A stretch of 64,000 nucleotides of DNA from Rotaria sordida (GCA_905250005.1 CAJNOH010000668.1:1-64000); one strand, 5' to 3'; positions 1,901 through 56,933 are shown, counted from the first letter of the stretch. A program made the numbers and translations. Notes: generated by a model from the letters alone, not told the origin.

Positions 1901-4900
1901 ATGAAGCAAACTACGATATCTACTCCATTGCTGTCACCATTCAATGGCAAAACGATTGTACTCGAACTTGGTCGTGAAATAGGTTTCAAAGCTAAACAAG
2001 AACTTATAAATTATTTACGAGAACAAAAAGCATATATTTCATATATTCTTACAGCTAGTGTATGTTATTCTTTCATATGCTACGAACACGCTGCTATTGT
2101 TGACTATTTATTTTTTAGACTGATTATGTTTTAATCACGAATAATGTAGATAGCTACAAGACACGTCGTGCGAAACAACTTGGTTTGCCACTAGTTAATG
2201 TTGAATATGTGTATGAATATCGTCGCTTGCCGCCTGGTCAAACATCGATCGATATAAGTAAATTTATCATCAAGTCAATTGAAGATCAAGAAAATTTTAC
2301 ACAGACTGGTACAATATCCATTACAGGTATATGAATGTCAACTTTTTAAAAATCATGTTGGAGATATTTATTCATTAGGATCTCGAACAAATGCAATCAA
2401 AATCAATAAATTTGATTTAACTAAAATCAAAATATGGAATTCAGACGATATTAATTTACCTCGTTTCGATGAGTTAACTCATTGTGAAATTGGAAAATGG
2501 GCCATTTTTAAAGTACAGTTCTATTCTTTTCTAGCTCTTATTTTTTTCTTATACATCTAATGTTCGTAATAGGAAACCAATGATAATTCAAATGTGTACT
2601 TTGTTCTTGAACTTCAAGTCATTCCTGAACAATACTATGATCGAATAACGAGTGATTATCGATTACGATTTCGTTATGAAAAACAAACTATTGTTAACGA
2701 TGGACAACAGCAAAATAAAAAAGTATTGATACAATATGCATTCAGTGATGATCCAAATGAACAGCAACAATTATTTGCCACGTATTATCATCGAGTAGCT
2801 ACAATGTCACGTGTAACACGAATTCGTGAGATGTTACCTGATAAATTAGGATCAAAATTATTATTACGTGTATGTTAAACGAGAAATAGTTTTTCAACTA
2901 AAAATAATTATTTTTAGTCTTTATTTACTCATCGTATCGATACACAAATACTTGATGAGAATGCATGTCAATTAATTGAATCGATTTGGTTAGAATCAAT
3001 TGGTGATTTGAATAAAATTTTGAGCGTACCACCTGAATCAATTACTCTCAAAACAGTATATTTATCCATTTTTCTATATTTAAATTTATTTTATTCCTTA
3101 TCTATTAAATAGATTATCGAAGCTGAAGCTGCACTACTTGAATTGAAAACGACTAATGATCCTCGTGCTGCACTTCGTTTCTATTCACTTATTCCTCATC
3201 GGTCACAATATACAGTTGATCTAATAAAAAATCGTCGAGTATTAACAGAAAAAATTGATTTATGTCAAGTATGTCTATTTTGTTTAATGATTTAATTTAA
3301 TTGTTCGCGTTCGTTCAGATGCTTCGAGACATGCTTACAGTCAATGAACTAACTAATTGGAATGTTAAAGCACCGATTGAAGCGAAATATCGAGCATTGA
3401 AATGTCACATTGAAACTATTGATAATTCAACACCTGAATTTAATAGTATTGCTGAATTGATTCAATCGTCAACAGATAAGTGAGAACAATTGAAGTTTGA
3501 TTTTATAATGATAACTTTGATTTTTTTATTCATTAGTGGTAAACAAATTGTTATTCATCAAATATTCAATGTAACTAAACAAATCGATGCACTTAATTTT
3601 TGCACATCTCTATCAAATCAACGACAATTATTTCATGGATCAAAATATGCTAATTTTCTTGGAATTCTTTCACGGTAAAACATTTATTTCATTTTCTAAA
3701 TAATATTTATAGTACAATTATGTATATTCAGTGGTTTAGCAATGCCAAAAATGGTAGTTGAAGAATTAGGTGTCGTACGTACTGATATTGGTTGTCTTGG
3801 TTATGGACTTTACTTTTCTGATTCTGCTTCTACATCTTTAAAATATACAACAGCAAGTACAACACGACCTGGTAGACGATTGTTATGTATTTGCCAAGTA
3901 GCACTAGGTGAATCAGCCAATTATTATTCATTTGCACCAACTCTCGTCAAACCTCACGATGGTTTTCATAGTACACATGGAGTCAAAAGAACCGAAGAAA
4001 ACAATTCAATGTTTACCGTAGGTACATTATTAGTAAAAAGAAAGTTTTCGAGTGTCCTACGAGTTAAGAAGATGATATAGGAGAAGATTTCGTACAAGTT
4101 GAAGTAAATACGTAATGAAAATTCCTCCCAGTTTGATATATATATAGAATAGATTTGAAATAAAAATTCGACAATTGATCTCGATTTCATAATTTGTTGT
4201 GTAATTATCAAAATAGGATAATGAATATGCAATCTATCAACTTGATCAACAACGTTTACTCTACATTGTGGAAGTTTCATGGGCACCGAACGATACTCTC
4301 AATATCGAATTTGAACGATTGCCAATTATTCATCATCAACAACATGCACTAAAATTAAGTGAACATGGTAATGATAATTAAATAGTTTTTGTTAAAATGA
4401 AATTCAATTAGATTATTCTGTTACATTCTAGTTGAAGTTCCAATGACAATTGAAGATGAAGTCATTGAAATAGCCGAACAAGACTATGGTTTAATAAATC
4501 CATCATCGGGAAAACTTGTACCACTTAAATCATTTCATATTCGTGCTCAAATTGTTGATACTACAGTTGAGGTAAATATATATATCGATCATTTCTCATG
4601 AAAGTCACACTAAAATTTATCATATTTCTTTTTTTAATATGAAAAAAAAAGGTTGTTCTCTATCAAGTCTATCACAATACGAGTTCGATACCAATTGAAG
4701 CTAAATATGTATTTCCTCTTGATGAAAATTCAACTGTATGTGGTTTCGAAGCACATATCAATAATAAAATTATTAAAGGTGTTGTCAAAGAGAAAGAACA
4801 AGCTAAACAAGAATATCGAGAAGCAATCGAAAAAGGACATGGTGCTTATTTGATGCATCAAGAACAAGCTCAAGTATTCAGTGTAGCTGTTGGTAATTTA

Positions 4901-6884
4901 CCAGCAAACAATGAAGTTATTATTAAAATAACTTATGTTGCCGAATTAGAAATTGAAAATGATGAAATTATATTTCGTCTACCAGCTAAAATGGCATCAT
5001 GGCAATCGAAACAAGCAATTGAAAGTAAAGATCAATCAATCGTACGATCGATTGGTATTATTGATGAAAAAGTTGAATTCAGTTTCAAAGCATCAATTCG
5101 AATGCCATATGAAATAATCAAATTATTTTCACCAACACATCGTCTTCGACGAAAATTAACTGATTGTATAGCTATGATTGAACTTATTGATAATGTCTTA
5201 CTTGATCGAGATTTTGTTCTTTCAATAACACTTCGAAGTGCTAATCTACCTCGAATATCAATTGAAACATTATCATTGGATAATGATGACAATGGAACAA
5301 CGATAGCATCGAAAAATGATGATTCTCAAGCATGTATGCTTACATTTTATCCACGATTTGAAACATTAACAAATTCGAATGAACAAATTGAACTTATTTT
5401 TATTATTGATGTATCCAATTCAATGGATGGTAGTTATGTACAACAAGCTAAACAATTAGCTCATTTATTTCTTACGAATATGAAATTCGATGATAGAAAT
5501 ATATATTTTAATATAGTTACTTTTGGATCAGGTATATAAAATGATAATTGATAGAATTATTCTATTATTCAAATTTGAATTATTTAGATAATGATGAATG
5601 TTTTCCGATTTCAACACCAACAACTAAAGAAAATCTTGATAAAGCTAAACACTTTGTTCTGGTTGATATTTTTTTGTTTTTATTACTATTGAAATATATA
5701 TATTTAACTTATTTTAGCATTCACTTATCCATCGTGGTAATACAGATCTATCTGCTGTTCTTCATCGTTATTCACTATTACCAGCATTACCAACATCGAA
5801 ATTTGGCCGTCAATTTATTATTCTCTCTGATGGACATATTCATGATCTTCAATCGATTCTTGTTCTACTCGAACATCAATCAACTATGCGTCGAGATCGT
5901 ATATTTGCATGTTCAATTGGTAATGTTGCTAACAAACATGGTTTGAAACAATTAGTGAATGGAGCAAGTGGTGGTGGTCTAACAACTGTATTCGATTCGA
6001 ACTATCGATCAAAATGGAAAACAAAAGTATTAAATATTCTCGAACAAGTTCGACAACCATGTGTTACAAATATATCAATTAATTGGCATGGTCATGTAGA
6101 TGAACAACAAAAATTTAATATGCAAGCACCGAAAATAATTCGATCATTATTTAATGGAATGCGACTTAGTGTCTATCGATTTATACAAAATTGTCATAAG
6201 GCCACATTAACAGCTACTATCGATGGACAAGAATTTGTTACAACTGTATTTAGTAGTACAATGACAACGACTAAAGGACGTATCCTACATTGTTTAACAG
6301 CTCGAGCGATTATTGATGATTATGATAATGGATTATTACATGTAGACGAGAGCGAAAATGAACTGATGAAAGTTCAATATAAGCAAGATCTTATTGATCT
6401 AAGTATCAAACATTCAGTCGTTAGTGCATACACTAGTTTTGTTGCTATCGAAGAACGTGATGCTAAAACAGATGTAAAAACTTTTCAACCAGGTTAGTAG
6501 AAAGTTAAATAGAATGTAATTAATTGCTGTCAATATTCTACTTATCTTATAGGCGTTCGTCTTCTTGATGTTATGCTCGATCGAAATATTGACTTATTAC
6601 CATACATAGGATGGGACGGTGATGTGTCAAATTTGGATACAATTAAACAGAAATTAATCGATGAACGTATTCCACTCGAAAGTGCATCGATTCAAAGCAA
6701 AAAAGAATCGATAGTCGATATTGAAAAACTTTGTGAAAAAATTTCCTATCGAGCAGGTGGTGATGCGAAATTTGATATGATGATGACTATCATACGTACA
6801 TATCGTTATGCATTGAATGAACATGAAAAAGCAAATGAAATTGAAAATAAAATGCGAAATGGTATGTTATTCAATCATAAATAA
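1901..6884 (+). CDS. PARP4-like: Multi-exon vault poly(ADP-ribose) polymerase (PARP4/vPARP)-like gene, ~18+ short exons. Domain order: BRCT (1901-2329), WGR-like (2382-2876), PARP regulatory helical domain (2918-3480), PARP catalytic (3536-4368), VIT (4431-~4900), vWA (5380-6494), C-terminal exon (6552-6884).
   Basis: Translated exons carry recognisable motifs. BRCT: GKTIVLELG...ITNNVDSYKTRRAKQLGLPLVNVEYV. PARP catalytic: H-G-S (LFHGSKYANFLGILSR), GLAMPK...GYGLYFSDSASTS, LLCICQVALGE, and the catalytic-Glu motif DNEYAIYQ. VIT: LVPLKSFHIRAQIVDTTVEVVLYQVYHN. vWA MIDAS-like: IFIIDVSNSMDG. Exons are joined by gtaagt/gtatgt...ag introns of ~40-120 bp. Exact exon boundaries were not all resolved. 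Confidence 0.8.
3536..4368 (+). CDS. PARP catalytic-domain exons (sub-feature of the PARP4-like gene).
   Basis: Exons encoding SGKQIVIHQIFNVT...LFHGSKYANFLGILSR, GLAMPKMVVEELGVVRTDIGCLGYGLYFSDSASTSLKYT...LLCICQVALGESANYY and DNEYAIYQLDQQRLLYIVEVSW. These match the H-Y-E ADP-ribosyltransferase signature of the PARP family. Confidence 0.8.
4431..6494 (+). CDS. VIT and von Willebrand A domain exons (sub-feature of the PARP4-like gene). Includes ORFs 4850-5539 and 5886-6497.
   Basis: VIT-like segment EVPMTIEDEVIEIAEQDYGLINPSSGKLVPLKSFHIRAQIVDTTVE...VFPLDENSTVCGFEAHINNKIIKGVVKEKEQAKQEYREAIEKGHGAYL. vWA: ELIFIIDVSNSMDG...LSDGHIHD...GASGGGLTT. This is the PARP4-type architecture. Confidence 0.75.
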
Positions 6885-7466: not shown

Positions 7467-7484
7467 CCCACACCCACACCCACA
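7467..7484. repeat. Single C-strand telomeric block (cccacacccacacccaca), intronic/intergenic within the PARP4-like locus.
   Basis: Read directly in the sequence. Confidence 0.8.
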
Positions 7485-22262: not shown

Positions 22263-22315
22263 GATGTGGGTGTGGATGGCGCGAAGACTCAGAACCCCTA
22301 CCACACCCACACCCC
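22263..22315. repeat. Inverted telomeric-repeat pair: gatgtgggtgtggatgg ... cccctaccacacccacacccc.
   Basis: Read directly in the sequence. Confidence 0.85.
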
Positions 22316-24335: not shown

Positions 24336-25286
24336 ATGGCATCATCTATTATTTCATCATTTGCTTTTGCTGAACAACAAATAACCATATATTTGGGCAT
24401 ATTCATTCTCTTCGGAGGTGTCCTTGGTGGACTTCTCAATATCACTGTTTTTCTGAGTCTCCAAACGTTTCGACAGAGTTCATGTGCATTTTATTTAACT
24501 GTGATGTCAGTTGTCAACATTGGTCAATTGATTACAGGTCTGCTCAGTCGTATAATGATCACTGGATTCGGCATTGACTGGACCCAAATGTCTCTGTTCT
24601 ACTGTAAAATTCGCTCGTACTGCATTATAACCTCTGCACTGATCTCCTTGAGTTGTTTTTGTTTGGCAACAATTGATCAATACTGGGCCACTTGCTCTTG
24701 TCTCCGATGGCAACGGTGGAGTAATATCAAGCTAGCTCGTCAACTGTCAGCAATCACTGTTCTCATTTGGATTCTTTTCAATATTCCATATTTCATTTAT
24801 TCCAACCATATTGTGTCAGCTACAACGGGCCGAGTGACTTGTCAGATTACAAATAATGTCTTTCAACAGTTCTCAACCTATGGAATAAATGTCACTTTTA
24901 CAAGAATTTTGCCTGTCAGTATATCATTCTTGTTAGGAGTGTTGGCCTATCGCAATGTGGAACAACTTGCTTATCGAACAGTGCCGATTGTTCGACGTGA
25001 GTTAGACAAACAATTGACAGTGATGGTTCTTGTGCAAGTTGTCGTTACTTTCTTTACAATTGTTCCATATAGCATTATAAATATTCTATTAACGATTTCT
25101 AACCTCACAACAGATCCGATCATTAGAGCGGAGCTTCAGTTCATATCTACTTTGTTCATGTGCATATTTTACATGAATTTTGCGGTAAGGATACGTATAT
25201 TATGGAGTCATCTGAAAAGTGAACTTGTGTTTAGAGTCCATTCTTCATTTATTTTTGTGTGTCAGATCGATTTCGTCGACAACTGA
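24336..25286 (+). CDS. Seven-transmembrane rhodopsin-like G-protein-coupled receptor. Essentially a single exon, with a possible short 3' intron at ~25186.
   Basis: 316-aa ORF with seven hydrophobic helices. TM1 is followed by GGLLNITVFLSL, TM3 ends ...LATIDQYWA (DRY-like position), and a basic third intracellular loop reads RNVEQLAYRTVPIVRRELDKQLTVM. The spacing matches class-A GPCRs. Confidence 0.65.
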   Translation: MASSIISSFAFAEQQITIYLGIFILFGGVLGGLLNITVFLSLQTFRQSSCAFYLTVMSVVNIGQLITGLLSRIMITGFGIDWTQMSLFYCKIRSYCIITSALISLSCFCLATIDQYWATCSCLRWQRWSNIKLARQLSAITVLIWILFNIPYFIYSNHIVSATTGRVTCQITNNVFQQFSTYGINVTFTRILPVSISFLLGVLAYRNVEQLAYRTVPIVRRELDKQLTVMVLVQVVVTFFTIVPYSIINILLTISNLTTDPIIRAELQFISTLFMCIFYMNFAVRIRILWSHLKSELVFRVHSSFIFVCQIDFVDN

Positions 25287-27129: not shown

Positions 27130-30100
27130 ATCGGTACACAAACAAGACTTCTGTTCAACTCTTCCGCTCACCTCCAACCAAACATTACTACTCGCTCTTA
27201 TCATCGAACTCCACATCACAAACAAACATCCACCAAGACACTTCTGTTCGTCCCTTTTGCTCACTTTGAACCATACCTTGCCACTCCCTCTCGTCATCGC
27301 ATACAACGTCGCAAAGGAACATTCATTATCAGACTTCTGTTCACCTAGTTTGCCAACTTCCAACCAAACGCTGCCACTCACTCTCATCATCGGGCATTAC
27401 ATCATAAATGCACATGCATAATGATACTTTTGTTCACCTTTTTTGCTCATTTCCAACTAAACGTTGTCACTCGCTCTCATTATCTAATATTACACCACAA
27501 AGGAACATTCATAATGATATTTGTGTTCACCTATTTTACTCAATTCAAACCCAACGTTGTCACTTCCACTCATCATCAAACATCACATCACAATCAAACA
27601 TTGATAAGCAGAATTCTATTCACCTTTTTTGCTCACATTGAGTCAAACATTCCCAATCACTCTCATCATCGTACATCATATCACCAACAAACATTCATAA
27701 TGATACTTTTGTTTACCTCTTTTGCTCATTTCGAACCAAACATTGCCGTTCACTTTCATCATCGAACATCACACTACAAATGAATATTACTCATAACACT
27801 TCAGTTCGCCTCTTTTGCTCACTTCGAACCAAACATTGCCATTCACTCTCATGATCGAACATCACATTACAAACGAATATTACTCATAAGACTTCAGTTC
27901 ACCTCTTTTGCTTATTTCGAACCAAACATTCCTATTCACTCTCATCATGGACCATCACATCACAATCGAATATTCATAACCAGAACTCTTTTCCCCTCTT
28001 TTACTCAATTCGACGCAAATGTTGCCACTCAGTGTCATCAACGAACATCACAGCACAACCGAACATTCATTATCAGACTTCTGTTCACCTCTTTTGCTTA
28101 CTTCAAGCCAAACGTTGCCACTCACTCTTATCATCTAACATCGCCTCACAAACGAACATTCATAAGCAGAATTCAGTTCACCTCATTTGCTCACTTCAAA
28201 CCAAACGTCACCGCTCTCTCTCATCATCGAACATCACACCATAAACGGACATTCTTCACCAGGCTTTTGTTCACCTCTTTTCCTCACTTCAAACCAAATG
28301 TTGCCACTCATTCTCATTATCGAACACCACACTACAAACGAACATTACTCAAGATACTTCCGTTCACCTCTTTTGCTCACTTAGAATCAAACCTTGTCAC
28401 TCTCTCTCATCATCGAACACCACATCACAAACGAACATTCATTATCAGAATTCTGTTCAACTAGTTTGGTCACTTGAAACCGAACGTTGTCACTCACTCT
28501 CATCATCGAACATTACATCATAAATGAACATTCATAATGATACTTCTGTCCATCTCTTTTGTTCACTTTGAATCAAACCTTGCCATTCACTCATCATGGA
28601 ACATCACATTGCAAATGAACATCCATAAAAAGGCTTCTGTTCACCTAGTTTGTTCACTTCGAATTGAACGTTGTCACTCATTCTCATCATCAAACATTAC
28701 ATCTTAAACGAACATTCATAATGATACTTTTGTTCACCTCTTTTGCTCATTTCGAACCAAACGTTGGCACTCACTCATCATCGAATATCACATCACAAAC
28801 GAACATTCAGCAATATATTTCTGTTCACCTCTTTTGCTCACTTCGAACTAAATATTGCCATTCACTCTCATCATGGAACATCACATCACAAACGAACATT
28901 CAAAAGCAGAATTTTCTTCATCTGTTTTGCTCACTTTGAACCAAACGTTGCCATTCACTGTCATCATCGAGCATCACATCGCAAACAGACATGCATAAGC
29001 AGAATTCTGTTCACCTCTTTTGCTCACTTCGAACTAAACATTGCCATCCACTCTCATCATCGAACATCACATCACAAACGATCATGCAGAAGCAGAATTC
29101 TGTTTACCTCTTTTGCTTACTTCGAGCCAAATGTTGCCACTCACTCATCATCGAATATCACATCAGAAACGAACATTCCTCAAGATACTTCTGTTCACCT
29201 AGTTTGCTCATTGCGAACCAAAGGTTGCTATTCACTCTCATCATTGAACGTCACATCACAATCGAACATTCATTATCAGAATTTTGTTCGCCTCTTTTAC
29301 TCACTCCGAACGAAACGTTTTCACTCACTCTCATCATCGAACATCACGTCACAAACGAACATTCATTATCAGATTTCTGTTCACCCCTTTTGCTCAGCCT
29401 GAACCAAACTTTGCCAGTCACTCTCATCATCGAATATCACATCATAACCAGACATTCATCACCAGACTTCTGTTCACTTCTTTTTCTCACTTCGAACCAA
29501 ATGTTGCCACTCATTGTCATCATCAAACATCACATCACAAACGAACATTCATTATCAGATTTCGGTTCACCTCTTTTACTCACTGCAAACCAAACATTGC
29601 CACTCACTCTCGTCAACGAACAAGACACCAGAAACGAAGATTCATCAATATACTTTTGTTCACTTCTTTTGCTCATTTCGAACCAAATGTTGCCACTCGC
29701 TGTGATCATCGAACATCACATCATAAACAAACATTCATGAACATACTGCTGTTCACCTTTTTTTACTCACTTCGAACCGAACGTTGTCACTCAATCTCAT
29801 CATCGAACATCACATCGCAAACGAACATTCCTTACAATACTTCTCTTCACTTCTCTTGCTCATTTCGAACCAAACATTGTCACTCACTCGCATCATCGAA
29901 AATCACGCCACAAACGAATATTACTCAAGATACTTGTATTCACCTAATTTGCTCACTTTGAATCATAGATTGCCACTCACTCATCATGTAATATCACATC
30001 ACAAACGAATATCCATAAAAAGACTTCTGTTCGCCTCTTTTGCTTGCTTCGAATGAAACCTTGCCAGTCACTCATCATCGAGCATCACATCACAAACGAA

Positions 30101-39099: not shown

Positions 39100-40773
39100 A
39101 TGATATATTTTGTAATATCCATAATTATTGGAATTATTTCGTATATAATCTACAAGAGATACAAAAACTCATTGAAGTCTCCTTCTACCACTACTCAGTA
39201 TGATCATGCCATAATTCTTGGAGGGAGCATTGGAGGAATCGTTACTGCAGCTTATTTATCTAAATATTTTAAACGAATAACTATTATTGAATCAGATGAT
39301 GTACTAAATGATATATTTATGAAATCTACACCTAGCGAAATATTAGATTATCGATGTCGACTTGAAAATCCAACATCATTAGGACGTTCAGGTGTTAGTC
39401 AAATATATCAATTACATGGACTTCAGGCTGAAGGTTATAAAATATTACAAGAATTATTTACTAATATAAAAGACAAATTATTCAATGAATATGGTGTTCG
39501 TACTTATTCAACAAAAAACGAGATCAAAGTAGCAATTGATGGTGTAGTCTTAAATCAATATTTAACCAAAGATATTGATTGGTTAGGTATTGATCGTTTT
39601 ACATTAGAAATAATTTTAAGAAAAGAATTCTGTTTGAAATTCAATAATCAAATTGAATGGAAATGTAATAGTAGAGTAATGAAATTAATTGTTAATCAAT
39701 CATCAAATATTGTTAAAGGTGTAAAATATCGATCAAAGAAAAATATCGATTCATCATCATTATTTGATATCTATGGAGATTTTATTATTGATTGTACTGG
39801 TCACAATACATCATCATCTAAATGGTTAAAAGAGAGTTTGAATTTAATTGTACCAACTGTACAAATACATTTTGGTGGTGGTGCTGTTACATTTATTGGT
39901 GAAAGATTTCGAACCGGTAATCTAACATTCGATTCAGCGGCTGTAATTGGTGTCATTGCTAATCCTCCGAAGAAAAATACTAGTTTTATTCTAAGTCCAG
40001 TGCGACAAATCAATACAACTGATCAAAATTCATTAGGAATATTAACAGCATGTGCTATAACCTGTGTTAATTCCGAATATCCACCTAATGATTCATATGA
40101 AAACTTATTAGAATGGACAAAAGAAAATCTAGATCCAGAATATTTTACGGTTATAAAATCAATAAAAATTTCTAGTCCAATAATTCCAAATCGTCATGCA
40201 ATTGATGATCGAAAGTATGTCGAAGTACTCGGTAAAAAATGGCCTCAAAATTATGTATTAATAGGTGATGCTATGTGTACATTTAATCCACAATATGCAC
40301 AAGGTATGACACATGCATGTAGACAGGCAAGAGAATTAGGAAAAATCTTTGGCGAAAATTGTCATAAATTAAAAGATATTTCTCATATTTTTAATCGTCG
40401 TGCTTCAAAAATTACTGAAGAATGTTGGCTTGCTTCGACTGTAAATGATTGGAAAATACCAACATTAAAAGTAATTGAAACAAATAAAAATGGTCAAGTG
40501 AAAATTTATCAAAGAGGTTATCATTCGGATATAACTAACAATGATGAACCACGAACACCTTTAAAAATACGATTTATGCAATGGTATAATTATTGGTTTT
40601 TTCAATGTGCATCGAAATCTGAACAATTAGCTACAGATTTCCTATTTGTTGTCAATCAATCGAGCAATCCATTAATATTAATGAAACCTACAACTTTTTT
40701 TAGAGTTATTCGTATGGCATTCATGAATTATTTAAAGGAGAAAGGTCTTTTTGGTAGAAGATCGACTTCATAG
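39100..40773 (+). CDS. FAD-dependent monooxygenase (class A flavoprotein hydroxylase / halogenase-like fold) with an N-terminal transmembrane anchor. Single exon, 557 aa.
   Basis: N-terminal helix MIYFVISIIIGIISYIIY. FAD-binding Rossmann GxGxxG: AIILGGSIGGIVTAAYLS. Second FAD motif YVLIGDAMCTFNPQYAQGMTHA (the GDAxH/NPxxGxGmn consensus of PHBH-family monooxygenases and flavin halogenases). The ORF is intronless, unlike neighbouring metazoan-type genes, and is bounded by telomeric-repeat islands at 37182-37222 and 41761-41822. Confidence 0.8.
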   Translation: MIYFVISIIIGIISYIIYKRYKNSLKSPSTTTQYDHAIILGGSIGGIVTAAYLSKYFKRITIIESDDVLNDIFMKSTPSEILDYRCRLENPTSLGRSGVSQIYQLHGLQAEGYKILQELFTNIKDKLFNEYGVRTYSTKNEIKVAIDGVVLNQYLTKDIDWLGIDRFTLEIILRKEFCLKFNNQIEWKCNSRVMKLIVNQSSNIVKGVKYRSKKNIDSSSLFDIYGDFIIDCTGHNTSSSKWLKESLNLIVPTVQIHFGGGAVTFIGERFRTGNLTFDSAAVIGVIANPPKKNTSFILSPVRQINTTDQNSLGILTACAITCVNSEYPPNDSYENLLEWTKENLDPEYFTVIKSIKISSPIIPNRHAIDDRKYVEVLGKKWPQNYVLIGDAMCTFNPQYAQGMTHACRQARELGKIFGENCHKLKDISHIFNRRASKITEECWLASTVNDWKIPTLKVIETNKNGQVKIYQRGYHSDITNNDEPRTPLKIRFMQWYNYWFFQCASKSEQLATDFLFVVNQSSNPLILMKPTTFFRVIRMAFMNYLKEKGLFGRRSTS

Positions 40774-41760: not shown

Positions 41761-41822
41761 ATGTAGGTGTGGGCATGGATGCGTTGTGTAGATAGTATCA
41801 TTGATTCACCCACACCTACATA
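41761..41822. repeat. Inverted telomeric-repeat pair: atgtaggtgtgggcatggatg ... cacccacacctacat.
   Basis: Read directly in the sequence. Confidence 0.8.
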
Positions 41823-44324: not shown

Positions 44325-47300
44325 ATGAATATCGAGATGAATCCTTCTCATACGAAACCAAGTTTTTGGTATTGTGATGTATGCAAGCGTAATTTCGATC
44401 ATGGGACGTTTCGTTACAACTGTATCGTGTGTCCCGATTATGACCAATGTAAGGAATGTACAGCGACGATGTGCCCACCACATCCTCACTCTTTAGTTCT
44501 CGAGTTGGCTTTTGGTGATGGAGAAAATACAACTTCCAATGGGAGAACTATGGCATCTGCAATTGAAGCAGCGATAGAGATCTATTGTGATCGTCAATGT
44601 CTGGGAGTACGAGACTTCGATAAAGATAATCCCGAACACTATGCCAATACCTACTCATGGCAAACTTACAAGACAGTGGGAGATCGGTCGATAAATTTTG
44701 GCCATGGACTACGACGTTTGATCGAACCACGTGATTATGTTGGTATTTGCGCATCGAGTCGACCCGAATGGGTTATATCAGACTTTGCATGCATGTTACA
44801 AAATTTTATTGGTGTACCGATATATTGTCTTTTGAATGATCGTGATACTGCTTTTATCGTTAATAACACGAATATATCCTTGATCGTTTGTGACAAAGAG
44901 ATGCTACCGAAATTTATTCGACTACGCTCAGAGTGTCCATCACTCCGTTATCTCGTTTGCATGGAACCAATTCTTCATACGACTACAGGTAGGAATAGAT
45001 ACCATTCAAATTTCATGAGCTCTTTTAAGGGTCATCTAAAAAGTTTTCTTGGCCAGATTCTTCAATTTATCATGAATCTTGCTAGTTCTAGAATATTACT
45101 GATATTCAATGAAAAATCATCCTTTCTTCGTTCATTTTGATCTATGAAAATCACATTGATTGTATCAATTTATTTTGTTGTAGACACGAACAGTAATGAA
45201 TTGTCGAATCAATGTTCCACCGGTTCTTATCAGTCGTTCTTGAATTTTGATAAATACAGTGAAGTACCGAAGAAAAAAGATGGTCTTTCGATTCACTACA
45301 TTGGTGATATCGAAAAAATGGGCTCTTGTAAACGATACAATTATGTCCCTATCGAGCCGAATGATATTCTCACCATCATTTATACAAGTGGTAGCTCCGG
45401 CTTCCCGAAAGGAGTCATGATTTCTGACAGTGCTTTGAGAAGTCTTTTTTCAGAGGAACTTTCACCATCGACTGGCGAACAAGTGACGTTCTCCTATCAA
45501 CCACTTGCATGGTATGGTGGACGAAATAACTTGATTGGAACGTTTCTTCTTGGAGGATGTGCTGGATTCTTCACAGGCAATCCATCTCGGCTGATGGAAG
45601 AGTTGGCTTTGGTAAGACCGATGGTTTTTCCTGCTCCACCAAGTATTTGGAATAAAATTTATTCCGAATTTAAATCAGCTCTTGCATTGACTATGGTCGC
45701 TGATTCACAACAACATGCTGAAGTAGAAGAAGAGCTTCTTCGACAGTTCTCAAAATTAATTCCATCAAGGTGTAATACGATCGCTATCGTCGGTGCCCAA
45801 ATCAGTCCGTTAGTACTCGACTTTATGCACAAATGCTTTCGACACTGTCAAATCGAAGATGGTTATGGAATCACAGAATGTGGAGGTGTAGCATTCAACA
45901 ATCGTTTCGATCCAACTGTTATCTATCGACTTGAATCAGTTCCTGAAATGAACTTTACACTTGAAGATCAACCTTTCCCACGCGGTGAACTTTTAACAAA
46001 AACACGTCAAATGTTTTCCGGATATGTCAATAATCCGACCGAAACACGAGCAGCATTGACCGATGACGGTTTCTTTCGTACTGGCGATATTGTTGAACTA
46101 CGTCAAATCCCAGATAGACCACCTTATGTCTATATAATTGATCGCAAGAAGAATTTCTTCAAACTTTCCAACGGACAATTTGTGTCTCCTGAGTATCTTC
46201 AGGGTATCCTCACTCGAAGTGCTTTCATCGAACAGATCTTCATTCATGGTGATCTGTATGAAGACAGTGTCACTGCTGTTATTGTACCCAATCGAGATCA
46301 CGCTCAAGCATTTGCCATTGAGAACAATATAACGTCGCTCGAATCGGATCCGAAATTTTACGACGCAATCATGCGTGATTTGCATGAAATTGGTACCAAG
46401 GAATCACTTCGAAAGCATGAAATTCCATCACGAATAATTATTGATTTCGAACGATTCACCGTCGAAAATGGATTGCTCACTTCATCCTTGAAGCCTTGTC
46501 GTCCCAAATTGATTGCTCATTATGCAAAGCGATTGAAGACAACAAACACATTGGAACAACGGTTGAAAACCATCATCGAAACAGTCACAGGTCAATCGTT
46601 GACGATCAATGATCATGTCAACTTTCTAGCCACCGGTGGTAACTCTTTGGCAGCCGTACGTTTATCACGAATGGTTCGCGAGGATCTCGGAATCACTCTG
46701 CCACTCAATATTCTTTTCCAATCCGAGATGAATCTCAAACGTTTGACAGAGTTTGCTCAAAATCCTTCATTGATTCAACACGATTCGATCGTCTCGCGAC
46801 TCCTACATGATGCCGAACTTGATCTCAATATTACAATTGGCAAACCAAAAATACTTGCTAGCTTCCCATCGATGGTTTTCGTGACGGGTACAACAGGATT
46901 TGTTGGTGGTTTCTTATTATTCGAAATGTTGAATAGATATCCGATTGATTGTAAATTCATTTGTCTCGTTCGATGTGAACAGTCGACGAATCCATTAGAT
47001 CGTATTCAAAAGAATATGGTTTTTCTTCATCTATGGCAAGACCATTTTCGAGAACGTATCGTACCGCTACGAGGCGATCTTTCTCAGACTCAGTTTGGAC
47101 TAGATGACAAGACTTATGCATCAATTGCAGCGCAAATTGACCTCATTTTTCATTGTGGTGCCACTGTCAATTTCCTATTACCCTATAGCCAACTTTATGG
47201 TTCGAACGTTTGTGGTACTCGAGAAATCATTCGTCTTGCAACTTATCCGTCCAACTGTATTCCTGTACAATATATATCGACAATCAGTGTTCTACCACCG

Positions 47301-47927
47301 GGTATTGTCGAGGAAATGCATATTGACGCTATCACACCACATTGTCTGACCACTGGTTATGGACAGAGTAAATGGGTGGCAGAGAAACTTATGAGAAAAG
47401 CTAGCTGTTTTGGTCTACCAGTTGTCATCTATCGGCTTGGCTCAATGTGCGCTAGCGTGAATAGTGGTGCCTGTAATCCACTCGATCTTCATACAATATT
47501 CATCATTGCCATATTGAAGACAGGTTCTTATCCGACCGAAGCGCTCAGCATGAGGCTCGACACTTTACCAGTGAATTTCGCTGCTAGCAATATCGTTCGT
47601 CTGAGTCTCGTTCGACCTGATGTGTATGGAAATGTCTATCATGTTGTTCATCCTGATGGTGGAGTGACATTTCAGAATATCGTTACAAGTGCGAAATTGT
47701 ATGGTGTAAAAGTAAACGATGTTCCTTTCGAACAATGGCGATCAACGATGCGAGGCCATTCATTTGAATCAGCCGACGAGTTGCTATTCGAGTTGATTTT
47801 CGGAAAACGATTAATATTATCGGCCAAACAATTTTACAGTATTGTATCTCCACTCAACATTCCGGCTATGGACAACGACTATACAAATAAATGGTTAGCA
47901 TTTATAATGCAAAATGTTCGACATTGA
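44325..47927 (+). CDS. NRPS-like carboxylic-acid/acyl reductase: N-terminal ZZ-type zinc finger, adenylation (AMP-binding, ANL), thiolation (PCP), and thioester reductase (R) domain. Two exons (44325-44988, 45184-47927; intron 44989-45183), ~1135 aa.
   Basis: ZZ: YCDVCKRNFDHGTFRYNCIVCPDYDQCKECTATMCPPHPHSL. A-domain cores: A3 IIYTSGSSGFPKGVMIS, A5 EDGYGITECGG, A7 FFRTGDIVEL, A8 IDRKKNFFKLSNGQFVSPEYLQ, A10 LLTSSLKPCRPK. T domain 4'-PP site: NFLATGGNSLAAVRLSRMV. R domain: VFVTGTTGFVGGFLLFEML (TGxTGFLG NAD(P) motif) and GYGQSKWVAEKL (YxxxK). Intron: donor ACAG|gtagga at 44988/44989, acceptor ttgttgtag|AC at 45183/45184, phase-consistent (…HTTT-D-TNSNE…). ORF 45144's MKITLIV start is therefore not a real start. 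Confidence 0.9.
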
Positions 47928-48251: not shown

Positions 48252-48614
48252 TAGGGGTAGGGTGGAGTGCGGTTGTGGTTGCGGGTGTGGATATCGGTGT
48301 GTGGGTGTGGATGTGGATGAAGGAAGTACCTATACCCACACCCACACCTACCCATACACATCCACGCCCACACCCACATGCACACCCACACCCCACACCC
48401 AGTGTGGATATGGGATGTAGGTGTGAGGTAGAACAAAATCAACCAACTCAGGTACATACTTACAGCGACAGCGCCAACCACACCATAAATATTCCTAATA
48501 TCCAAATTCAAGTTTAAGTCAATGCGACATGATTGCCATCTTGAGGGTGAGTGTGGATGTGGGTGGATGGGTGTACGATTGTTTTCAACAACACCCATAA
48601 TCACCCACACCCGC
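48252..48614. repeat. Largest telomeric-repeat island with the block order G, C, G ... G, C. It sits immediately 3' of the A-T-R gene. The overlapping ORFs (48100-48396, 48215-48610, 48224-48517) are artefacts.
   Basis: gtaggggtagggtggagtgcggttgtggttgcgggtgtggatatcggtgtgtgggtgtggatgtgg / cccacacccacacctacccatacacatccacgcccacacccacatgcacacccacaccccacaccc / gtgtggatatgggatgtaggtgtgaggt / gggtgagtgtggatgtgggtggatgggtg / cacccataatcacccacacccgc. Confidence 0.9.
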
Positions 48615-48759
48615 AGTTATACTACACTGTCGATATCTCAGCTGGAGTGTAACTTGTACTCATATTCTTTTAAGCTTTTTCTGCTGCATATGTGACGTAG
48701 GGTGCACCGATTTTGAGCTCAAAAGCTTTTTAGTACTTCAGGGATTTGACCGTAAGAGA

Positions 48760-51136: not shown

Positions 51137-53422
51137 ATGTCGAAGATATTGTCATTATCGACTGAAAATATTTCAATCCCGTCACAACATCTACCTCTAT
51201 CTGCAATTAATGGGGACAACAAAGAAAATACAACTCTTATTTGGTTTGATCCAAACATTGGTTCATGCGAAGATATCAAGATTACGATGAACCGACTTCG
51301 AAAAATAAGTGATTATACTGTGTTTCATACCGAACTTGAATTCTGTGTCACTTTGATCAAATCAATTCAAAATGGAAAAGTATTCTTGATTACATCTGGA
51401 AAACGTGCCTCAGAACTCTTGCCACACATTGTAAATCTTCGTCAAATCGATTCAATCTTCATTTATTGCACAAAGTCAAGTGAATATGAGCATTTGATGA
51501 AGACCTATTCGAAAATAGTTGGTATCTATGTGGATATCGAGTCACTGTGTGCATCCATTAGAGAACAAGTTGATCTAGTTGACAAGCAACTGGAAACATT
51601 TAGTTTCTTTGATCAACATCAGAAGTCGACCAAAGATCTATCGAAAGAATCAGCCGAATTTCTGTGGTTTCAGCTGTTCAGTCATGTAATCTTAAGTCTT
51701 CCACACGATCAACAAGCTAAGTGCCAAATGCTCAATTTCTGTCGTCAGTATTATCGTGGAAATAATAAGCAACAGAAACTGATTGATGACTTTGAACAAA
51801 ATTATCAGCCTGAGTTAGCTATTCAGTGGTATTCAAAACAATCTTTCATCTACAAACTAGTTAACAAAGCTTTACGAAGTGAAGATATCGATCAACTTCA
51901 CACATTTCGATTTTTTATTGGAGATCTCTCCCACAGTCTTAAACGTGAGCATCAAAAGATTGCTCGATCTGGAGAAAAAAACTTGACTCTTTATCGAGGA
52001 TTGAGGCTATCAAATGAAGAACTCAACAAACTCAAAGAAAATCAAGGAAAACTCATCTCGACTAATGGATTTTTATCAACTAGTCGACGTCGATCACTAG
52101 CGGTTGCCTTTGCAACCAAACACACGACACGCACTGATGCTTTACCCATTCTCTTTCAAATCGAGTACAATGTGAACAAACTAGATGATTCTGTTATCTG
52201 TGCAGATATTGCTGAATTCAGTGATTATCCAAAAGAAGAAGAAGTTCTCTTTGATTTTAATGCTGTATTTCAAATCGAAAATATTCAGCGTGATGCACAA
52301 CTATGGATCATTAAAATGAGTGCATCAAGAGATGGACAAACCATTACACACGACTACATCGATTTAATGCGTCGTGAAACCGACGAAAAAACAGTGCCCA
52401 TCATGTTTGGAAGATTAATGTGTCAAATGGGTCAGTACGACAAATCTTTCAAATATTTTGAACAGCTCTTACTTCACCCAAATGGCGAAGATCTAGCATC
52501 AATCGAATTCAATATGGGTCGAACGCTTCATGACAAAGGTGAACGGAAATCAGCTCTGAAATACTATGACAGTGCTTACAACCGAATGATGAATGTCGAT
52601 CCACCTCGAATCAAAGACTCAGCATCTGTGCTCAACAATATTGGAATTGTTCTTCAGCAGCGTGAAAAATATGAAGAAGCATTGGATTTCCATCAAAGAG
52701 CACTCAAAATACGAAAGAAATATTTTCCCGTCGAACATCCTGACATTGCTCTCAGTTTAAAAAATATTGGTCCTGTGCTCAAGGAACAAGGAAAATACAA
52801 CGAAGCTCTCGACTACTATCAGCAAGCACTTAAAATACAAGAACAATATTATCCGCGCAGTCATCCAATCATTGCTTCTAGTCTCATTATCATTGGTAAT
52901 GTTTGTCGTAGTCAAGAAAAATTCGATGAAGCCCTTGAGTTATATCAACGAGCCTTGAAAATGCTACAAGAATGTTATCCAACAGACCATCCCGACATTG
53001 CATGGAGTCTCAGCAGCATTGGTTCAATCTTTCAAAATCGACAGGAGTACCAGAAAGCCCTCGATATGTATCAACAAGCTCTCACCATGAAAGAGAAATA
53101 TTATCCTACAGATCATGTCTCTATTGCATGGAGTTGCAACGATATTGGATCTATCTTACAAGCTCAAGGAAAATACGATGAAGCCCTCAACTATCATCAA
53201 AGAGCACTCCAAATATTAGAAAAGCACTATCCTGCAACTCATGTCAATATCGCTATTAGTCTAAGAAATATTGGAGAGAGTTACGAAAATCTAAATAATT
53301 CAAAGTTGGCGCTCAATTTTTACAAAAAAGCATTGGTTATTTATAAGAAAAGTCTGCCTGTGGATGATCCTGTGCGAAAGAAAACTGAAGAAACTATTGG
53401 TCGACTCTCTTCCTTGGAATGA
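51137..53422 (+). CDS. ADP-ribosyltransferase (R-S-E clade, arginine-ART-like) fused to ~8 kinesin-light-chain-type TPR repeats, preceded by an uncharacterised ~170-aa N-terminal domain. Single exon, 761 aa.
   Basis: ART triad with proper spacing: TLYRGLRLS (R), GFLSTSRRRS (S-T-S), DYPKEEEVLFDF (E-x-E). TPR_10/12-like 42-aa repeats: EALDFHQRALKIRKKYFPVEHPDIALSLKNIGPVLKEQGKYNEALDYYQQALKIQEQYYPRSHPIIASSLIIIGNV... repeated through ...ALNFYKKALVIYKKSLPVDDPV. Confidence 0.8.
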   Translation: MSKILSLSTENISIPSQHLPLSAINGDNKENTTLIWFDPNIGSCEDIKITMNRLRKISDYTVFHTELEFCVTLIKSIQNGKVFLITSGKRASELLPHIVNLRQIDSIFIYCTKSSEYEHLMKTYSKIVGIYVDIESLCASIREQVDLVDKQLETFSFFDQHQKSTKDLSKESAEFLWFQLFSHVILSLPHDQQAKCQMLNFCRQYYRGNNKQQKLIDDFEQNYQPELAIQWYSKQSFIYKLVNKALRSEDIDQLHTFRFFIGDLSHSLKREHQKIARSGEKNLTLYRGLRLSNEELNKLKENQGKLISTNGFLSTSRRRSLAVAFATKHTTRTDALPILFQIEYNVNKLDDSVICADIAEFSDYPKEEEVLFDFNAVFQIENIQRDAQLWIIKMSASRDGQTITHDYIDLMRRETDEKTVPIMFGRLMCQMGQYDKSFKYFEQLLLHPNGEDLASIEFNMGRTLHDKGERKSALKYYDSAYNRMMNVDPPRIKDSASVLNNIGIVLQQREKYEEALDFHQRALKIRKKYFPVEHPDIALSLKNIGPVLKEQGKYNEALDYYQQALKIQEQYYPRSHPIIASSLIIIGNVCRSQEKFDEALELYQRALKMLQECYPTDHPDIAWSLSSIGSIFQNRQEYQKALDMYQQALTMKEKYYPTDHVSIAWSCNDIGSILQAQGKYDEALNYHQRALQILEKHYPATHVNIAISLRNIGESYENLNNSKLALNFYKKALVIYKKSLPVDDPVRKKTEETIGRLSSLE

Positions 53423-53539
53423 TAAGCTTTTATGCATCGATACGGAAAGAAACACGATGAACTAAAATCAGATTGGTTATATTCATTCACGATTTTGTTT
53501 TGTTGAAATAAATCATAGCAACAGCAATTTCCTACACTC

Positions 53540-53630
53540 GGGGTGTGAGTGTGAGGATAGTTCTTCTATTCATCCACACTCGCGCTCGCTTCAACCCGCA
53601 CTCGAAAAACCTACACCCACACACCCACAC
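53540..53630. repeat. Inverted telomeric-repeat pair 3' of the ART-TPR gene: gggtgtgagtgtgagg ... catccacactcgcgctcgcttcaacccgcactcg...cctacacccacacacccacac.
   Basis: Read directly in the sequence. Confidence 0.8.
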
Positions 53631-55274: not shown

Positions 55275-55490
55275 CGTGTGCGTGTGGGTGTCGTGTTGAT
55301 GAGGAGTAGGTGTGAGGTGGATTTGAGGTGTGGGGTGTAGATGTGGGTGCGAGGTATGTGGGCGTGTGGGTGTGGAACCGGTGTCAGCGTAGGTCTTGTT
55401 TGGACCTGCATCCTACACCCGCACCCCACCCGACACCCACACTTACACCCACACCACGCCCACACCCCACACCCACACCCTTCTGTATAA
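55275..55490. repeat. Telomeric-repeat palindrome of ~215 bp. G-strand arm ~105 bp, 32-bp centre, C-strand arm ~78 bp.
   Basis: gtgtgcgtgtgggtgtcgtgttgatgaggagtaggtgtgaggtggatttgaggtgtggggtgtagatgtgggtgcgaggtatgtgggcgtgtgggtgtgg | aaccggtgtcagcgtaggtcttgtttggacctgcat | cctacacccgcaccccacccgacacccacacttacacccacaccacgcccacaccccacacccacaccc. The ORFs 55271-55465 and 55328-55510 are artefacts. Confidence 0.9.
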
Positions 55491-56872: not shown

Positions 56873-56933
56873 ATGGGTGTGGGTGAGTGTTCACTAAGAG
56901 ACAATAACATCCACACCGACACCCACACCCGCA
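56873..56933. repeat. Inverted telomeric-repeat pair: atgggtgtgggtgagtgt ... catccacaccgacacccacacccgcac.
   Basis: Read directly in the sequence. Confidence 0.85.

Follow-up and report, generated by a model that had tools for sequence, protein, structure and literature searches.

What does an animal gene do that joins a toxin-type ADP-ribosyltransferase (ART) domain to an array of tetratricopeptide repeats (TPRs)? The question is raised by a locus of the bdelloid rotifer Rotaria sordida, at positions 51,137 to 53,422 of a 64,000-nucleotide stretch (GCA_905250005.1, CAJNOH010000668.1:1-64000), hereafter the window. An initial annotation, made from the sequence alone, had read this locus as an ART of the R-S-E type followed by TPRs and preceded by a domain that it could not place, and had likened the product to diversifying effectors or immune-type proteins. 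The evidence assembled here points to a TPR-targeted, arginine-specific mono-ADP-ribosyltransferase with a receiver-like regulatory module, a mechanism to which, taken as a whole, we assign a probability of roughly 0.55; the narrower claim, that the locus is an intact R-S-E ART-TPR gene belonging to a bdelloid family, is held with high confidence.

An intact gene encoding an R-S-E ADP-ribosyltransferase domain

The boundaries first proposed are exact, and the open reading frame (ORF), which encodes 761 amino acids from an ATG to a TGA, is an intact intronless animal gene (Table 1). The nearest upstream in-frame stop, as read from the sequence, lies 23 codons before the ATG, the GC content at third codon positions (GC3) is close to that of neighbouring animal-type genes, and a tblastn search with the protein found no second copy in the 64,000 nucleotides. 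The entire chain is explained by three domains, receiver-like, ART and TPR, according to Pfam and a full-length AlphaFold2 model with a predicted local distance difference test score (pLDDT) of 89.4 and a predicted template modelling score of 0.80; pLDDT falls below 50 at residues 1-27/28 in both this model and a second one covering residues 1-215. No signal peptide, hydrophobic N-terminus or transmembrane segment was found in the protein (maximum 19-residue Kyte-Doolittle hydropathy, 1.12), which is probably cytosolic.

The central domain is recognized by two Pfam models, ART (PF01129; residues 224-397, E=7.8e-10, 38.9 bits against a gathering threshold of 22.3) and ADPrib_exo_Tox (PF03496; residues 228-385, E=5.3e-8, 32.9 bits against a gathering threshold of 23.4), and in the full-length model it is made up of a helical N-subdomain (170-277) and a beta-sandwich core (282-396). 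The motifs LYRG (285-288), GFLSTS (311-316) and PKEEEV (365-370) follow one another in the order given by the initial annotation, but not at its spacing, being separated by 22 rather than 35 and by 48 rather than about 55 residues. In the model they are placed, respectively, in strand 282-292, in strand 313-316 and immediately ahead of strand 369-372, which is the strand order typical of ARTs.

A phmmer search with the ART sequence alone, covering every PDB chain, retrieved the Vibrio splendidus toxin Vis (4xzj, deposited under the name NAD(+)--arginine ADP-ribosyltransferase; E=9e-6), and a profile built from 16 family members retrieved Vis at E=6.6e-10 together with SpvB, VsdC, XopAI, ExoT and HopU1. 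In the phmmer and profile alignments alike, YRG, STS and E-x-E share columns with YRG, STS and E-A-E of Vis and SpvB. The R-S-E assignment thus stands, with both Pfam models above their thresholds in a hidden Markov model check and the three motifs positionally equivalent to those of Vis, and by every sequence criterion tested the 761-residue protein belongs to the R-S-E (cholera-toxin/C3-like) clade of ARTs.

Conservation across the family is consistent with an enzymatic role. The Arg equivalent to R287 is kept in 107 of 108 homologues, and the glutamate pair, whose conservation the initial annotation had proposed to check, is kept at E367 in 97 and at E369 in 101 of about 108. E369 would be the putative catalytic Glu and E367 the one linked to arginine specificity. 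Of the 108 homologues in which none of the five positions is a gap, 89 (82%) retain R-S-(S/T)-E-E, which argues for selection on catalysis, while about 18% are without at least one R-S-E residue. We consider that the protein is probably active as a mono-ADP-ribosyltransferase; since the E-x-E form goes with arginine-specific transfer in the R-S-E family, arginine is its most likely target residue.

Table 1. Features of the ART-TPR gene and of its surroundings (nucleotide positions in the window)
Feature	Position	Strand	Basis or remark
Complete single-exon gene	51137..53422	+	761 codons plus TGA stop; ATG start; uninterrupted ORF
Poorly conserved N-terminal tail, aa 1-30, probably disordered	51137..51226	+	Low column conservation; low pLDDT
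Receiver-like (beta/alpha)5 flavodoxin-fold domain, aa 31-158 (~128 aa)	51227..51610	+	Predicted structure
Highly conserved linker from receiver-like to ART domain, aa 152-169, LETFSFFDQHQKSTKDLS	51590..51643	+	Family alignment
ADP-ribosyltransferase domain, aa 165-410	51629..52366	+	Pfam ART and ADPrib_exo_Tox; predicted secondary structure
R287 codon (Arg of Y-R-G; putative NAD-binding Arg of the R-S-E triad)	51995..51997	+	Aligned to YRG of Vis and SpvB
S314-T315-S316 codons (S-T-S motif)	52076..52084	+	Aligned to STS of Vis and SpvB
E367-E368-E369 codons (E-x-E, ARTT loop)	52235..52243	+	Aligned to KEAEV of Vis and GEAEM of SpvB
TPR array, aa 420-761, ~8 kinesin-light-chain-type repeats and C-terminal capping helix	52394..53419	+	Pfam; AlphaFold2 model
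AATAAA, candidate polyadenylation signal	53507..53512	+	85 nt 3' of the stop; sequence reading only
PARP4-like multi-exon gene	~1901-6884	+	PARP catalytic exon 3742-4080 (E=3.8e-11); VIT/VWA 4850-5539
Rhodopsin-family 7TM receptor, 316 aa, single-exon	24336-25286	+	
Tryptophan-halogenase-like (flavin-dependent halogenase) ORF, 557 aa, uninterrupted	39100-40773	+	GC3 very low, 0.15
Two adjoining ORFs with ZZ zinc finger, AMP-binding, PP-binding and NAD_binding_4 (thioester reductase)	44325-45140 and 45144-47927	+	

A TPR array of the kinesin-light-chain type

About eight TPRs of the kinesin light chain (KLC) type follow the ART domain, as the initial annotation had proposed (TPR_12, E=1.2e-62; Pfam extent approximately residues 425-750), and the model lays them out as helix pairs: a short pair at 420-446, seven pairs over 453-739 and a capping helix at 745-760, with six clean 42-residue repeats counted from residue 492. 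In sequence and in structure alike, the closest solved match of the array is the cargo-binding TPR domain of KLC1/KLC2. The most variable positions of the 42-residue repeat across homologues are 6, 13, 16 and 17, which we take to be the canonical TPR positions 2, 9, 12 and 13 of the concave ligand-binding face, and their variability fits diversified binding specificity.

An N-terminal domain with a predicted receiver-like fold

The N-terminal domain remains unplaced by Pfam, as it was at first: residues 1-220 match no Pfam family, and a scan with the domain yields sub-threshold noise only (DUF5100, E=0.03; GWD1_pHisD, E=0.06). The length first given, about 170 residues, proved too long; the domain spans about 128 residues (31-158), and residues 165-277 fall within the helical portion of the ART. 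A model of residues 1-215, based on 98 homologues, reaches a pLDDT of about 90 over residues 31-150 and predicts five strand-helix units. Among the folds that had been suggested for this domain, the flavodoxin-like one agrees with the prediction, which is receiver-like, while TIR and STAND do not, and the domain is not simply a degenerate TPR; on the predicted fold, all three of these candidates were rejected.

The N-terminal region is therefore best described as a separate globular domain, predicted to have a receiver-like flavodoxin fold and not a receiver by sequence. Response_reg (PF00072) gave no match to it even at E<=10, and hhalign between its profile and CheY returned a probability of 0.2 and no similarity. 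Near-invariant residues are W36, D38, L54, C70, I74, S87, L95, Q103, F108, L120 and L137. When the conserved residues are read against the predicted strands, D38, after strand 1, would occupy an acidic-pocket position, strand 3 (81-87) ends in T86-S87-G88 with a Ser (S87, at least 90% conserved) where the phospho-acceptor Asp would be expected, and strand 5 (127-131) is followed by V132-D133 without a Lys, all of these equivalences being drawn from predicted secondary structure. The stretch that leads from this domain to the ART domain is highly conserved, with the family consensus FSFFDQHQKSTKDLSKES (residues 155-172), and model confidence there is only 68-73; this conserved but flexible linker could be a regulatory or interaction motif.

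A very large family among bdelloid rotifers

A homologue search with residues 1-420 recovered 189 proteins, the best of them 70% identical and nearly all of the same architecture, and the organisms named among them are all bdelloid rotifers (Rotaria spp., Adineta vaga, A. steineri and Didymodactylos carnosus). In UniRef they go by names such as 'ADP ribosyltransferase domain-containing protein', 'NAD(P)(+)--arginine ADP-ribosyltransferase' and 'Kinesin light chain', the last reflecting the TPRs alone. The count of paralogues proposed with the initial annotation was obtained with a profile of the receiver-like domain searched against 1.84 billion cluster representatives (50% identity): 3431 representatives match at E<=1e-3 and 1699 at E<=1e-10. 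Among the matches listed, 63 are at least 400 residues long, with TPR_12 present in 53 and ADPrib_exo_Tox in 41, and the long atypical members have only extra TPRs or duplicated N-terminal domains. In twenty clusters sampled from the top and bottom of the match list, every named one is bdelloid, and the unnamed ones are metagenome or raw-read assemblies with animal genes adjoining. A 597-residue metagenome homologue has the reversed order, with the ART at residues 297-449 and the receiver-like domain at 487-588, probably because the gene caller fused two paralogues lying in tandem.

Four homologue genes were checked and, with the window gene, all five loci are single-exon. Three or four neighbouring genes of Adineta vaga (CP075492.1, 10001-18399), in mixed orientation, resemble the family (652 residues; 691 residues with TPRs; 589 residues with a weak ADPrib_exo_Tox match; 589 residues), so that at least some paralogues are locally clustered. 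The family is very large and, among named sequences, restricted to bdelloid rotifers; the window gene is one ordinary paralogue of a family already deposited and automatically annotated in several bdelloid genomes. Literature searches found no paper analysing either the family or its receiver-like domain. Three published accounts were considered and rejected: in the AACRNL paper (PMC12957317) the ART is diphtheria-toxin-like and joined to a Crinkler domain, and neither Kaur et al. 2021 (PMC8195603) nor Zhang et al. 2012 (PMC3482391) describes the family.

Proposed mechanism

In the mechanism that we favour, the concave groove of the KLC-type TPR solenoid would bind a peptide motif of a partner protein and deliver the bound partner to the ART domain, which would take one ADP-ribose from NAD+ and attach it, most likely to an arginine, if activity and specificity follow the E-x-E rule. 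The receiver-like domain, which accompanies the ART domain in most sampled members and lacks the phospho-acceptor Asp, would probably gate the enzyme, either through regulation or oligomerisation without phosphorylation or through the binding of a small ligand. Paralogues may differ in the ligands of their TPRs and, therefore, in their targets.

Several points weigh against this mechanism. The gating step is purely conjectural, and Foldseek favours a receiver only weakly, with a best E of about 2e-3 and other flavodoxin-like folds scoring alike. R-S-E enzymes can alternatively be NAD+ glycohydrolases or modify non-protein targets. Variability at concave positions is common to TPRs in general, and the TPR region overall is not more divergent than the ART domain (mean identity to the query: receiver-like 0.51, ART 0.56, TPR 0.51). 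Literature searches found no biochemical or expression data on any member.

Comparison with known systems

The nearest solved sequence relatives are the bacterial R-S-E mono-ART toxins and effectors (Vis, 4xzj; SpvB, 2gwm; VsdC; ExoT; HopU1; XopAI), whose motifs are in register with those of the rotifer protein, although similarity in the aligned core outside the motifs is about 25-30%; in contrast to them, the rotifer protein is the product of an animal gene, is without a secretion or translocation module, and carries receiver-like and TPR domains. The vertebrate ecto-ARTs (ART1-5) match the same PF01129 model above threshold and share the R-S-E chemistry; they are, however, secreted or glycosylphosphatidylinositol-anchored single-domain proteins, whereas the rotifer protein has two more domains and neither a signal peptide nor a hydrophobic anchor. 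A reading as an ecto-ART was rejected, as there is no hydrophobic N-terminus or anchor.

For the C-terminal half, the point of reference is kinesin light chain, with which the 42-residue TPR_12-type repeats are shared and whose groove, binding short cargo peptides, serves as the model for the rotifer array; where KLC has an N-terminal heptad-repeat coiled coil for kinesin heavy chain, the rotifer protein has its receiver-like and ART domains instead (410 residues). CheY-like receivers and pseudo-receivers have in common with the N-terminal domain a predicted (beta/alpha)5 flavodoxin-like fold; they show no sequence similarity to it, and they differ from it in that S87 would take the Asp site after strand 3 and the Lys after strand 5 is missing. 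STAND/NLR sensors with TPR arrays are organized around a central NACHT/NB-ARC P-loop NTPase, none of which was found by Pfam in the rotifer protein, and the N-terminal domain matches neither the fold nor the profile of the TIR-domain NADases. A functional analogy is offered by tankyrase, in which an ankyrin-repeat scaffold brings substrates to a fused H-Y-E PARP domain that builds polymers. Both would recruit to an ART through a repeat array; the rotifer protein uses TPRs and an R-S-E mono-ART, and the architecture is not homologous.

Alternative explanations

Among the rivals of TPR-targeted mono-ADP-ribosylation, the one that survives best is an innate-immune sensor-effector, which we nevertheless consider unlikely. 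The diversified TPR array would sense a pathogen or danger ligand and release the ART, perhaps via receiver-like oligomerisation; the output would be NAD+ depletion or ADP-ribosylation of host or pathogen proteins, making the protein, by analogy, a counterpart of NLR/STAND or TIR/SIR2 systems without an NTPase switch. Such a role would be in keeping with a massive expansion in a single lineage (3431 representatives at 50% identity, bdelloid wherever named), with the joining of a toxin-type enzymatic domain to a repeat array in which the concave-face positions are the most variable, with paralogues that are clustered (A. vaga CP075492.1) as well as dispersed, and with the suggestion that the expanded TPR and other multigene families of A. 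vaga may serve defence and immunity (PMC3846280). Against it, the three domains fill the protein, the 761 residues of which have no Pfam match to a NACHT, NB-ARC, TIR, death-fold or NTPase domain, no PADLOC model matched residues 1-420, and the TPR region shows no hypervariability when set beside the catalytic domain. The diversifying immune effector of the initial annotation is thus weakly supported: the variability of the concave TPR positions holds, but the region that carries them is no more divergent than the ART (0.51 versus 0.56).

A more ambitious version is more doubtful still. Here the proteins with a receiver-like domain, ART and TPRs would form a large bdelloid repertoire of cytosolic receptors, with TPR grooves as sensors, an Asp-less receiver-like switch requiring neither NTP nor phosphorylation, and ADP-ribosylation or NAD+ depletion as output. 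If true, an animal would possess an NLR-like system of innate immunity with an architecture of a new type.

It is also improbable, in our estimation, that the family is toxin-derived and foreign (bacterial) in origin, or was multiplied by retroposition, with selfish or neutral amplification, and not diversified host function, behind its copy number. All five of the loci checked are intronless, the solved proteins most closely related to the ART are bacterial toxins and effectors, and the gene lies near foreign-type genes (halogenase-like and NRPS-like adenylation-thiolation-reductase) among interstitial TGTGGG-type repeats. However, no relative turned up when the ART alignment was used in a pattern scan, a method of limited sensitivity, across 185,579 bacterial and archaeal genomes; the alignment of the N-terminal domain contains no stretch conserved enough for such a scan. 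Transposon domains are absent in and beside the gene, its GC3 resembles that of neighbouring animal-type genes, and the conservation of catalytic residues and full architecture from genus to genus implies purifying selection.

Finally, a catalytically silent TPR adaptor whose ART-like domain serves only to bind NAD, ADP-ribose or a partner is very hard to credit, for although non-catalytic members exist (the ~18% of homologues short of at least one R-S-E residue), no catalytic residue is missing from the window copy, and 82% of homologues retain the full set.

Genomic surroundings

The window looks bdelloid, with a GC content of about 0.33, sparse genes that have introns, foreign-type genes (Table 1) and repeats of the TGTGGG type. 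The PARP4-like gene that the initial annotation had recognized is roughly borne out by a PARP catalytic exon and a VIT/VWA region. The significance attached to its pairing with a mono-ART is not: 45 kb and three genes (GPCR, halogenase-like and NRPS-like) separate the two, and their co-occurrence looks coincidental on present evidence. A functional link was rejected, given this distance and the genes in between.

As for the intervening genes, an expansion of 7TM receptors, among other families, has been reported for A. vaga (PMC3846280). The two adjoining ORFs at 44325-45140 and 45144-47927 are probably one NRPS-like adenylation-thiolation-reductase gene split by a stop or an intron. Genes of the halogenase-like type are usually foreign in origin in bdelloids.

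Two further observations concern the intergenic sequence. Between 26000 and 30000 the GC skew is strongly negative (-0.30 to -0.49) and ORFs overlap in three frames (28743-29961), which suggests a C-rich low-complexity or repeat tract. The sequence (TGTGGG)2, with at most one mismatch, occurs at 22 sites in the window against 0.03 expected, among them 257-268, 7467-7484, 22265-22311, 41762-41820, 48300-48615, 53610-53629, 55277-55477 and 56916-56933; many of them are paired in inverted orientation at a distance of 30-60 bp, and the ART-TPR gene has sites on either side. Because TGTGGG is the bdelloid telomeric repeat, the sites may be interstitial telomere-like repeats, or else a small palindromic intergenic element.

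Significance of the family

By itself the window gene matters little, as one more copy of a deposited and automatically annotated family. The interest lies in the family, which, judging from its sequences, comprises thousands of genes for probably intracellular and apparently active R-S-E mono-ARTs, each with a TPR array and a previously undescribed receiver-like domain. Apart from sirtuins, no intracellular use of R-S-E-type ARTs on such a scale is known in animals. Ordinary as the window gene is, the family may deserve study, since no paper on it was found. Transcriptomics of A. vaga shows a 'protein ADP-ribosylation' gene ontology signal (PMC12220480), and it is a speculative thought that the ART-TPR family lies behind it. 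Were the family's function worked out, arginine ADP-ribosylation might prove to have a new use in the signalling or defence of animals.

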